Origin: Escherichia phage P1
Sequence record: NC_005856.1
Reading direction: 5' to 3' (one strand)
DNA: 64,000 nucleotides
Shown: positions 61,771-64,000 of the stretch, one piece after another
How the letters are laid out: every line of letters starts with the position of its first letter
How positions within the stretch are numbered: the first letter of the stretch is position 1
Translations under genes and position numbers: made by a program
The notes under the pieces: model-generated
What the model was told of the DNA's origin: nothing
Seen by the model: the letters and a program-made list of their open reading frames with translations, nothing else
Database searches by the model: none

Positions 61771-62631
61771 TTATTCGGGGAGTTTCAGCTTTGGATTGCG
61801 AGAATGGACGATTACAAAACTTTCCCGGCCTTTCTTCTCAATAGAACAGTCGAGATAGCCGATTGTTTTAAGCTGTTCTATCGCTTTCTTAATGATACGG
61901 TTTTGCTCGCCAACAGCTGACTGCAAAGCCAGGCGCTCACGGATTCGCGCGAACGATAGCGGCAACGGGTTCTGCGGAAGGCTTTCGATGAAAGTGTAAA
62001 TGGCTTGTGCAGCTTCTTTCTTCGGAAGGGCACGCAAGGCGTGGTGTTGCAACAGAACGCGATAATCAAGCTGGAACAGCTCCCACAACTTCGAATCAGC
62101 CTCCAGCTCTATCAGATCAAGGTCAGCATCAAAACGCCCGACCTTCAGCAGACCAGTCTGATAGCCGCCTTTAGCATCTTTTCCGCGCTTAAAAGCGATA
62201 CCCTTGTTACGCAAGCGTCCAAGTGATTCATGAATGGTTAAACGCAGTTTCGCATCCAGACGTTTTGAGGGGAAACCACAGGCTTTAGCGAATTCCTGAA
62301 ACGATAACTGGATGGTGTTTGAGGACAAGCCGTATTTGCTGAACGCGTAGATGACACCGATCCACGTTTTGAAATCAGTATCCATATCGAGTCGAGGACC
62401 GGTGATTTTAATATCATCGTAACCCTCGGCTTTAGCTATCTCCAGCTGGGAAAACGCTTTGGTGGCATCAATCTCTTTACTTTCTCCTTTGCTCTTTGAT
62501 GGCTTCGGCACGAATACCCCCAAGCGCATCAACGCTACAGGCTGCACAGTGTTGTTTGAATTAACTGTTAGTTCTTTTGCCTTACTTTCAATGTCTGCGT
62601 AAAGAATATCGGAGATAAATGATTGATTCAT
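61771..62631 (-). CDS. repA: RepA plasmid replication initiator (286 aa)
   Basis: 286-aa ORF flanked by iteron arrays on both sides; size matches P1 RepA. Confidence 0.95.
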   Translation of the reverse strand: MNQSFISDILYADIESKAKELTVNSNNTVQPVALMRLGVFVPKPSKSKGESKEIDATKAFSQLEIAKAEGYDDIKITGPRLDMDTDFKTWIGVIYAFSKYGLSSNTIQLSFQEFAKACGFPSKRLDAKLRLTIHESLGRLRNKGIAFKRGKDAKGGYQTGLLKVGRFDADLDLIELEADSKLWELFQLDYRVLLQHHALRALPKKEAAQAIYTFIESLPQNPLPLSFARIRERLALQSAVGEQNRIIKKAIEQLKTIGYLDCSIEKKGRESFVIVHSRNPKLKLPE

Positions 62632-62687
62632 ATTACTTTTTCCGAATTGTGTGGATAGTTTTTATAAGTGGTGATAACTACCCAAGC

Positions 62688-62791
62688 TTTCCCGTCAACA
62701 CACATCCTATATCCCGCCAGCACACATTAGCAACCCGTCAGCACACATTTTTATCCCTCCAGCACACATCGTTTTCCCTCCAGCACACATC
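62688..62791. repeat. incC iteron array (five direct 19-bp iterons) forming the core of oriR
   Basis: Five copies of a CC(C/T)(G/T)(T/C)CA(A/G)CACACAT-type repeat at about 21-23 bp spacing, upstream of repA. Confidence 0.85.
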
Positions 62792-62824
62792 GCGATACAC
62801 TTCTAAGCCAGACGTGGCGCGGCC

Positions 62825-62912
62825 TGCAACGATCAGGGATCTATATGGATCTAATTGGGATCTGTATGGACCTGATTATTGGATCTATCCAGTGGATAAT
62901 GTGGATAAGTGA
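62825..62912. other. oriR flank: five GATC (Dam) sites and tandem DnaA boxes
   Basis: GATC at about 62831, 62838, 62848, 62859 and 62883; TTATCCACA-type boxes as GTGGATAAT/GTGGATAAG at 62893-62910; another DnaA-like box near 62650. Confidence 0.75.
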
Positions 62913-62915
62913 AAA

Positions 62916-62937
62916 ACCGGCCAACGTAGCCGGTTGG
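62916..62937 (-). terminator. Terminator-like hairpin downstream of upfA
   Basis: AACCGGC-loop-GCCGGTT with T-run on the minus strand. Confidence 0.4.
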
Positions 62938-62949
62938 AAGGGAGTCGTA

Positions 62950-63342
62950 TTATTCTACGCTTTCGATGAGAAGACCATGTTCATAGCATTTAAGCTCATC
63001 GCCCTCGTACAGGAATTGGTATCCAATACCACCATATTCAGGCACATTAGGGAATAACTCATCACTTACCGAAGAACAAATCACACCAATGCAGCGATCA
63101 ACGCCTTCTCGTTCTTCAGTGCTGAAAAAATCCTCTTCGGTAAGAACATGAGTACATTGCTCATCAGCATAGGTCGGAAATACATGCTCAATGCAATCCG
63201 GGTGTTTTAAACCAAGCTGATCGGCAAGCTCGAAAGCACGACGGTATTGTTCAGATCCTGGCTTGCCAACAGTGATTTGCTCAATTTTGTAGATTGAAGT
63301 CGCTTTGTTGATAGTTTGCTTTACTGTTACTTTATCAGACAT
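62950..63342 (-). CDS. Hypothetical protein (130 aa; P1 upfA position)
   Basis: ORF adjacent to oriR; no domain recognised. Confidence 0.4.
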   Translation of the reverse strand: MSDKVTVKQTINKATSIYKIEQITVGKPGSEQYRRAFELADQLGLKHPDCIEHVFPTYADEQCTHVLTEEDFFSTEEREGVDRCIGVICSSVSDELFPNVPEYGGIGYQFLYEGDELKCYEHGLLIESVE

Positions 63343-63353
63343 AAAAATCCCTT

Positions 63354-63605
63354 TTAGTTACCGCTAATAGCTCGGTTGTAATCATTAACGTTGCGATTCT
63401 TCCTGTTAATCCCCATCAGCATCGTTTCTGTATCGAGGATATACGCTGGCAGATCATCAAAATATTCACTGCTAAACTCTGGCATCCTACACATAAATGC
63501 ACTTTTGGGGGCAGGGTGGTTAACCTTTGTCGGCGTCGGCGTTAAATTCGCTGATCGACTCCCGGAGCAACCGCTGAGTGTCAGCAGGAATACGCTGGCG
63601 AACAT
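63354..63605 (-). CDS. Putative lipoprotein (83 aa from ATG 63605; lipobox LLTLSGC)
   Basis: Signal peptide MFASVFLLTLSGCSGS with a Cys in lipobox context; the longest ORF (from 63686) adds 27 N-terminal residues. Confidence 0.45.
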   Translation of the reverse strand: MFASVFLLTLSGCSGSRSANLTPTPTKVNHPAPKSAFMCRMPEFSSEYFDDLPAYILDTETMLMGINRKNRNVNDYNRAISGN

Positions 63606-63942
63606 TACCCGCCGCAACCAGTTGTTTCTGAACTTCAGCTTTTCGTTCCATTTGCCTGTCAGCATACTTGGCTTGTTCTGATTCATTTTTCACTTCCTGG
63701 CTGTGAAAATGTTGCTCTGCTTTGTTCATCGTCTCAATGGTCTGGTTAAGATCCATTATTGACTTATCACGTTCCTTAACAGCCTGATCAAGACTGCCAA
63801 TTTTCTCTATGGCTTGCTTTAGCTGATGACGTTCCCATGCAAACCCAGCACCAACAAGTGCGCAAATCAGAACAAGAACACCAGTAGCAGCAAGTTTCTC
63901 CTTCAAAGACAAAGCTGTTTTTAACGTAGAAAAGAATGACAT
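63520..63942 (-). CDS. Putative membrane-anchored coiled-coil protein (start probably MSFFSTLK... at 63942)
   Basis: One hydrophobic helix (GVLVLICALVGAGFA) followed by a charged, coiled-coil-like region; overlaps the lipoprotein ORF in another frame. Confidence 0.35.
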   Translation of the reverse strand: MSFFSTLKTALSLKEKLAATGVLVLICALVGAGFAWERHQLKQAIEKIGSLDQAVKERDKSIMDLNQTIETMNKAEQHFHSQEVKNESEQAKYADRQMERKAEVQKQLVAAGNVRQRIPADTQRLLRESISEFNADADKG

Positions 63943-64000
63943 GTCTTCCTCCTGAAGAAAAATTATCAATGAAGTCCTTTGTTACTGTGCCGCTTTGTTT

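Follow-up and report, generated by a model that had tools for sequence, protein, structure and literature searches.

The ppfA and mlp genes of bacteriophage P1, an overlapping pair near oriR, as a predicted two-component spanin

Close to its oriR, bacteriophage P1 carries two small overlapping genes, ppfA and mlp, which very likely encode the two subunits of a two-component spanin of the 'overlapped' architecture, judging from the features of their sequences. The pair is known and is already catalogued as the predicted spanin of one of the most studied phages. In PMC9025707 (2022), ppfA and mlp are named as the P1 spanin genes, and Summer et al. 2007 is credited with identifying them from predicted features. 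SpaninDB (supplement, Kongari et al. 2018) enters P1 (NC_005856) as 'ovl', that is, an overlapped i-spanin/o-spanin pair; its i-spanin, gp064, has the sequence of PpfA and 0 periplasmic Cys, and its o-spanin, gp063, has the sequence of Mlp and 1 periplasmic Cys. The mlp homolog already bears the name 'Rz-like spanin' in the RefSeq records of P7, SJ46 and RCS47, and several GenBank records of P1-like elements call the pair Rz and Rz1. (Note that the introduction of PMC9025707 calls ppfA the o-spanin and mlp the i-spanin, which is the reverse of SpaninDB and of the sequences themselves, the membrane helix being in PpfA and the lipobox in Mlp.) What is new here is limited to start-codon evidence, the location of the dual constraint, and a candidate late promoter.

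The window analyzed is the whole 64,000-nucleotide stretch of P1 (NC_005856.1). Its annotation was taken from record AF234173.1, whose coordinates are identical to those of the window (bases 62600-64000 were compared and are 100% identical). In this record the gene pair consists of ppfA and mlp, both on the minus strand:

63942-63520, minus strand: ppfA, CDS AAQ14144, 140 aa, record note 'possible periplasmic function'
63686-63354, minus strand: mlp, CDS AAQ14143, 110-aa precursor
63520..63686, minus strand: dual-coding overlap of 167 nt, mlp lying in the +1 frame of ppfA (256 nt offset)

The mlp product is given as 'membrane lipoprotein precursor', with the note 'possibly involved in regulation of lysis (by homology)'. 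A first-pass annotation, made from the letters of the window, had described a lipoprotein ORF overlapping a membrane ORF without giving either an identity, which the record, PMC9025707 and SpaninDB supply: they are P1 ppfA and mlp, a predicted overlapped i-spanin and o-spanin. The two minus-strand ORFs overlapping in different frames were reproduced, at 63520-63969 (TTG start, 149 aa) and 63354-63686 (ATG start, 110 aa).

Are both frames genes, or is one of them a chance ORF? The first-pass annotation held only that at least one was likely a real envelope-targeted protein, and named the conservation of a single frame among relatives as the outcome that would count against the pair. Relatives were collected as 95 loci, which reduce to 71 distinct ppfA-mlp segments. 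A scan of genome contigs gave only 3 loci and a first scan of viral contigs 80, near-identical in both scans; diverged loci were gathered separately, through contigs encoding homologous proteins. The latter comprise eight lineages (P1-like elements of Cronobacter, Klebsiella and Salmonella) with 68-70% DNA identity to P1. Both frames are open in 71 of the 71 distinct segments, these eight lineages with their roughly 30% divergence included, so it is not the case that only one is conserved. Nei-Gojobori comparisons of P1 with the eight diverged lineages gave the following values:

ppfA-only part, ppfA frame: dN/dS 0.19
mlp-only part, mlp frame: dN/dS 0.09
wrong-frame controls: dN/dS about 1.0 and 1.5

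The unique part of each gene is under purifying selection in its own frame. The overlapping pair is real, well above chance, and the earlier claim of at least one real protein is exceeded, both genes being real.

Within the overlap the picture is not uniform. When it is divided at the end of mlp codon 26, the two parts compare as follows:

first 78 nt (mlp codons 1-26): nucleotide difference 0.33, PpfA identity 66%, Mlp identity 25%, ppfA pS 0.88
last 87 nt (mlp codons 27-55): nucleotide difference 0.15, PpfA identity 81%, Mlp identity 69%, ppfA pS 0.31

The nucleotide difference in the flanking non-overlapping sequence is 0.39 and 0.26. It is the last 87 nt that code for the h-region and lipobox of Mlp, together with 15 residues at the beginning of the mature protein. 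Synonymous divergence in ppfA falls from 0.72-0.88 to 0.31 precisely over the part that codes for the h-region and lipobox. Over mlp codons 1-26, pN/pS in the mlp frame is 3.6. Only the last ~87 nt of the overlap are under dual-coding constraint, and the first 78 nt evolve as ppfA-only sequence. The +1 frame has no stops over 111 codons in every lineage, as against 4-8 stops in the preceding 84 codons. We judged the open +1 frame over mlp codons 1-26 to be weak as evidence of translation; stops are probably rare there because the overlapping PpfA segment has few codons with T in second position.

These data bear directly on the notion that one frame only is a real gene, which we regard as extremely unlikely. 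It could draw on the absence of a constraint of its own in mlp codons 1-26 (25% identity and the high pN/pS) and on the mlp stub of only 46-65 aa, or nothing at all, that gene callers often report in relatives. Set against these are the low dN/dS of both unique parts beside control frames at about 1 or higher, a lipobox Cys and h-region that are invariant or conservatively substituted, the long stop-free +1 frame in every lineage, and the fall in ppfA synonymous divergence at the h-region and lipobox.

The extent of the overlap depends on where mlp starts. The start-region features are:

63953-63948, minus strand: Shine-Dalgarno AGGAGG of ppfA, read directly from the sequence, conserved in all relatives
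63693..63698, minus strand: Shine-Dalgarno-like AGGAAG of mlp, 6 nt upstream of ATG 63686, present in every lineage and reading AGGAGG in the diverged group
63615..63617, minus strand: mlp codon 24, a conserved NTG (TTG in the P1 group, ATG in the diverged group)

For ppfA the choice is simple. The left-hand ORF (63520-63969) was indeed in the first-pass list, but its TTG start at 63969 was rejected in favor of ATG 63942, which has AGGAGG before it and opens a conserved N-terminus, MS[FI][FI]STL. For mlp the remark that starts are ambiguous was fair, but the start proposed with it, at MFAS (M28, 63605), is the worst candidate. That Met is V, L or F in relatives, and a protein starting there would lack a basic n-region and does not fit even a loose lipoprotein pattern. 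The overlap of 'about 85 nt' reported earlier rests on this least supported start (86 nt) and has to be replaced by the 167 nt that follow from the annotated, conserved ATG. A start at M8 (MLTGK) was also rejected, not being conserved in the diverged group. Every lineage keeps the ATG at 63686, displaced by one codon in the diverged group, and we take it as the main mlp start. It yields a 39-residue, highly basic signal peptide. The very basic n-region is probably a by-product of reading the E/K/Q/R-rich coiled-coil segment in the +1 frame.

A second start may exist at mlp codon 24, where 96 of 97 loci read NTG; residue 109 of PpfA, which overlaps it, is by contrast variable (V, H, D, Y). Mlp residue 24 aligns with Met1 of P2 LysC in BLASTP, and initiation here (63617) would give a canonical 16-residue lipoprotein signal peptide and a 98-nt overlap. 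Since there is no Shine-Dalgarno sequence upstream of codon 24, this start is no more than a possible one. The mature lipoprotein is identical whichever start is used.

How far do the two proteins fit a spanin? The features that define membership of the two-component spanins were taken from Summer 2007 and Kongari 2018: an i-spanin with a single N-terminal membrane helix (N-in/C-out) and a mostly alpha-helical or coiled-coil periplasmic domain with a linker, an o-spanin with a lipobox and an outer-membrane sorting signal, adjacent genes, and a usual (not obligatory) place in the lysis cassette. The i-spanin candidate is laid out thus:

63520..63942, minus strand: PpfA, predicted N-terminal cytoplasmic stub, membrane helix 17-36, periplasmic helix 37-110, linker 111-119, C-terminal helix 120-138

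PpfA has a single hydrophobic segment at residues 17-36 (63894-63835), with a Kyte-Doolittle 19-residue maximum of 2.35. The N-terminal stub has a net charge of +2 and the part after the helix a net charge of 0, and the predicted topology is N-in/C-out. The C-terminal 104 residues are 36% charged and contain no Cys. AlphaFold2 (18-sequence alignment, mean pLDDT 69) gave two helices, 13-110 and 120-138, separated by a low-confidence linker at 111-119. The 3.5-residue hydrophobic (heptad) periodicity of residues 37-80 was matched by 0 of 2000 shuffles; at residues 81-110 the periodicity is weaker (p about 0.03). The coiled-coil reading comes from this hydrophobic periodicity and AlphaFold2, and the mostly helical periplasmic domain with a linker that is expected of an i-spanin is found in PpfA on the same two grounds. 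The earlier description of an ORF with one transmembrane helix and a long charged coiled coil is borne out by the hydrophobicity, charge, structure prediction and periodicity. PpfA is accordingly predicted to be a type II inner-membrane protein with a short cytoplasmic N-terminus, one membrane helix and a helical, partly coiled-coil periplasmic domain.

The o-spanin candidate has these features:

63686-63570, minus strand: Mlp signal peptide, counted from the annotated ATG
63578-63567, minus strand: Mlp lipobox, L-S-G-C in the sequence

The lipobox reads LTLSG|C, with Cys40 at 63569-63567; the h-region plus lipobox is VMFASVFLLTLSG|C and is followed by Ser-Gly. An o-spanin should carry, besides its lipobox, an outer-membrane sorting signal, and Mlp has no Asp at +2. 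As a lipoprotein rule we used K/R, 7-20 uncharged residues and [LVI][ASTVI][GAS]C, with a start codon no more than 45 aa upstream and a mature part of 25 aa or longer. Among ORFs in all six frames of the 64-kb window, Mlp alone fits it. The lipobox-containing ORF of the first-pass annotation is thus real, being the single consensus match in the window with a Cys that is invariant in relatives. As to the signal-peptide prediction that was proposed as a check, Mlp passes this consensus rule; SpaninDB (Kongari 2018) lists for Mlp a LipoP cleavage site at position 39 and no PROSITE match, and flags the 39-aa signal as 'too long'. From ATG1 Mlp fails a strict N-terminal lipoprotein pattern because its n-region is too long. 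In relatives the lipobox is kept as LSGC, LSAC, LNGC or LNAC, and the h-region is invariant or conservatively substituted. Mlp is predicted to be made with a lipoprotein signal peptide. Its mature part is 71 aa long and has 6 Pro, Ser-Gly after the position of the acylated Cys, and one further invariant Cys (C66). Across 11 diverse Mlp homologs there is little or no variation at C40, at C66 or in the motifs AFMCRMPEF, SEYFDDLPAY and INRKNRN. AlphaFold2 gave Mlp no globular fold, at low confidence (pLDDT 54).

As regards gene arrangement, the pair is of the overlapped kind, with mlp starting inside ppfA in the +1 frame and this 167-nt overlap conserved in 71 of the 71 distinct relatives.

The nearest known system is LysB/LysC of phage P2. 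PpfA matches phrog_89 'Rz-like spanin' over its full length (5.1e-25), and P2 LysB belongs to the same family (5.8e-61). Mlp matches phrog_30284 (6.5e-79) and phrog_456 (2.7e-5); P2 LysC is in phrog_456 (1.7e-31), and its reciprocal match to the Mlp family phrog_30284 is at 5.4e-4. BLASTP also links Mlp to P2 LysC directly (E 1e-7, 37% identity over 68 residues, Mlp 24-90 to LysC 1-67), the common features of the aligned region being the lipobox, a PTP motif and a C-x-MP cysteine motif. Pairwise BLASTP of PpfA against P2 LysB detected no significant similarity (E 58), and the PpfA-LysB link is visible only at the profile level. The best NCBIfam match of PpfA, phage_LysB TIGR03495, is below its cut-off (18.2 bits against 92.75, E 0.0023), as is that of Mlp, P2_Rz1/LysC NF038368 (14.7 bits against 27). 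Because TIGR03495 stays below cut-off while phrog_89 is matched over the full length, PpfA is best described as a remote homolog rather than an equivalog. By profile and pairwise comparison, then, PpfA and Mlp classify as remote homologs of P2 LysB and LysC. Pfam Rz and Rz1 models gave no match to either protein even at E up to 1, and a Pfam scan of the pair returned only sub-threshold coiled-coil noise.

The P2 pair is organized like that of P1: the o-spanin gene begins toward the 3' end of the i-spanin gene, is read in its +1 frame and continues beyond it. The two genes share 146 nt in P2 and 167 nt in P1, with a +1 register in both, and the i-spanins are of similar size (140 aa for PpfA, 141 aa for LysB). 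The differences are that the P2 genes lie in the lysis cassette after Y, K and lysA, whereas the P1 genes are unlinked to lyz and lydA, and that Mlp as annotated has a 23-residue basic N-terminal extension that LysC lacks.

Since the P2 record describes lysB as 'nonessential; affects timing of lysis' and lysC as 'regulation of lysis', and the P1 mlp note points the same way, one could suppose that the pair regulates the timing of lysis, as in the older reading of lysB/lysC, and is not a machine for outer-membrane fusion. We consider this very improbable, for three reasons. In the first place, LysB/LysC are now classed in the spanin literature as the tested prototype of the overlapped spanins. 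Moreover, an inner-membrane anchor combined with an outer-membrane lipoprotein is the very topology that a complex spanning the periplasm needs. Finally, delayed lysis is also an expected phenotype of spanin loss.

Two better known spanins complete the comparison. Lambda Rz/Rz1 is the prototype of the 'embedded' spanins and the only one studied in mechanistic detail. Like the P1 pair, it combines a type II inner-membrane protein having a helical, coiled-coil periplasmic domain with a small outer-membrane lipoprotein encoded in the +1 frame; the o-spanin has a periplasmic Cys in both cases (C29 in Rz1, C66 in Mlp). The two systems differ in that Rz1 lies entirely within Rz whereas mlp runs past the end of ppfA, in that lambda Rz has two periplasmic Cys and PpfA none, and in the mature lipoprotein (71 aa with 6 Pro in Mlp, 40 aa with 10 Pro in Rz1). 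T4 PseT.3/PseT.2, a separated spanin, resembles the P1 pair in having an i-spanin without periplasmic Cys and an o-spanin that carries the cysteines; its genes do not overlap, unlike ppfA and mlp. The T4 spanin genes lie, as those of P1 do, away from the holin and endolysin genes.

A mechanism can be proposed by analogy with lambda Rz/Rz1. PpfA would be anchored in the inner membrane with its predicted helical domain in the periplasm, and Mlp, after cleavage and acylation at Cys40, would go to the inner leaflet of the outer membrane. The two would pair across the periplasm by way of the peptidoglycan mesh, and Mlp C66 could form a homodimer disulfide as Rz1 C29 does. Once the Lyz endolysin has degraded the wall, the freed complexes would collapse and fuse the inner and outer membranes, letting the progeny out.

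Several points are counted against the spanin reading. The pair has no lysis-cassette location, the NCBIfam scores are far below cut-off and Pfam Rz/Rz1 is not matched; the 39-aa signal is unusually long, PpfA is without a periplasmic Cys, the P1 copy of the candidate promoter described below has three mismatches, and in the CRISPRi screen discussed further on neither gene scored as essential, unlike lambda Rz.

The genomic setting deserves a closer look. In the AF234173 annotation the genes form a leftward string, upfC-upfB-ppfA-mlp-upfA, that ends just before oriR. The neighbors of the pair are upfC, upfB, upfA and oriR/repA, with no holin or endolysin gene beside ppfA-mlp, so that the usual location of two-component spanin genes is not seen here. 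PMC9025707 likewise describes the P1 spanin genes as an operon unlinked to the other lysis genes. The features that flank the pair are:

63962..63980, minus strand: candidate Lpa-dependent late promoter, AAAGGACTT-CATT-GATAAT, in the 39-nt gap between upfB and ppfA
62950-63342, minus strand: upfA, the gene downstream of mlp, variable among relatives
62935-62915, minus strand: intrinsic-terminator-like hairpin downstream of upfA, with a 9-bp stem (5 GC pairs) followed by a T run

The terminator-like hairpin abuts the annotated oriR and adjoins its DnaA box. At the upfA position a Gp49-family (PF13876) gene is found in relatives from Salmonella and Cronobacter, and the gene is absent in a Klebsiella aerogenes relative (L088); in phage JL22 a blaCTX-M-55 insertion interrupts upfA (PMC9603915). 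Because upfA varies among relatives and a hairpin stands before oriR, there appears to be no functional tie between the pair and either upfA or oriR. We looked for a functional link to oriR and found no support for one. The phrase 'next to oriR' in the first-pass annotation holds as far as position goes, but with the terminator-like hairpin in between the proximity appears incidental.

UpfC, the first gene of the string (P1 64779-65063, minus strand, just outside the window), matches phrog_281 'PAAR motif' at 2.5e-30, and is 31% identical to T4 gp5.4 according to its record note. UpfC is probably a tail-spike tip protein, which would place a virion gene in the same string as the spanin pair.

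For the pair AF234173 annotates only predicted sigma-70 promoters. From five annotated P1 late promoters we derived the late-promoter consensus AAGTGACTT-N4-TAnAAT, and with it located the motif upstream of ppfA, whose -10 element ends 19 nt before the ppfA ATG. The P1 sequence, AAAGGACTT-CATT-GATAAT, has 3 mismatches to the consensus, and by itself it is not significant, since the window contains 14 such matches where chance would give about 7. Four diverged relatives (L088, L091 and L093 at 2464; L099 at 1464) have, at the same position, a perfect -22 box and one mismatch overall, and these four are the only matches with at most one mismatch in 93,602 scanned positions. Other lineages keep AAATGACCT-N4-xAxAAT; the spacer between the motif and the Shine-Dalgarno sequence shows no conservation. 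This phylogenetic footprint suggests that the pair is transcribed late and in an Lpa-dependent manner, which would fit a role in lysis. Expression of ppfA and mlp is probably late, from the candidate Lpa-dependent promoter directly upstream of ppfA, going by the conserved motif. P1 late promoters are usually counted as 11, and the candidate would be an addition.

The setting also bears on a different view of the pair, namely that Mlp is an accessory lipoprotein expressed by the prophage (a Bor-, Cor- or Llp-like agent of surface exclusion or lysogenic conversion), that PpfA is unrelated to it, and that the overlap is mere gene packing. This is consistent with a location beside repA, oriR and par instead of lysis genes, with the sigma-70 promoters being the only ones in the record, and with the absence of an effect of knock-down on plaque formation. 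On the last point, a CRISPRi screen rated neither gene as essential for plaque formation (EOP 0.24/0.19 on knock-down of mlp, 1.3/1.2 on knock-down of ppfA), and rated lambda Rz as essential. The screen is weak evidence either way because the spanin phenotype is condition-dependent (PMC9025707). Against an accessory lipoprotein, the two partners independently match the two halves of P2 LysB/LysC, their pairing and +1 overlap are kept in every relative, a late-promoter-like motif is conserved upstream, and the terminator-like hairpin separates the operon from oriR. We therefore think it quite unlikely, and continue to favor a spanin.

Could the two additions be combined? We have considered that mlp uses two conserved starts (ATG 63686 and NTG 63617) and that the pair is driven by a twelfth, unannotated Lpa-dependent late promoter. 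That both would hold is unlikely in our estimation. Neither the codon-24 start nor the late-promoter-like motif upstream of ppfA is in the AF234173 annotation or in the literature searched, which did not include the 2004 P1 genome paper. If both were true, the two mlp starts could tune the amount or timing of o-spanin export, loosely as holin dual-start motifs do.

The genes are widespread among P1-like elements: in a set of 77 P1-like phage-plasmids both belong to the 21 best-conserved genes, and PpfA is found in 631 PLSDB plasmids. Annotation of mlp is nevertheless prone to error. In relatives L003 and L087-L095 and among proteins P0011-P0014, gene callers reduce the mlp homolog to a C-terminal stub of 44-65 aa or miss it altogether; most relatives have a stub of 46-65 aa or no call. 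Overprinted o-spanin genes are routinely shortened or lost in this way by automatic gene callers. Another pitfall is a 5.9-kb contig, JAFAFU010000017.1, from a metagenome-assembled genome labeled 'Bacillota bacterium', whose ppfA is 99% identical; it is most likely a mis-binned fragment of a P1-like element from Enterobacteriaceae.

As a discovery, the spanin pair of P1 matters little; the additions concerning its start codons, the place of its dual constraint and its promoter should be useful for genetic tests of P1 lysis.
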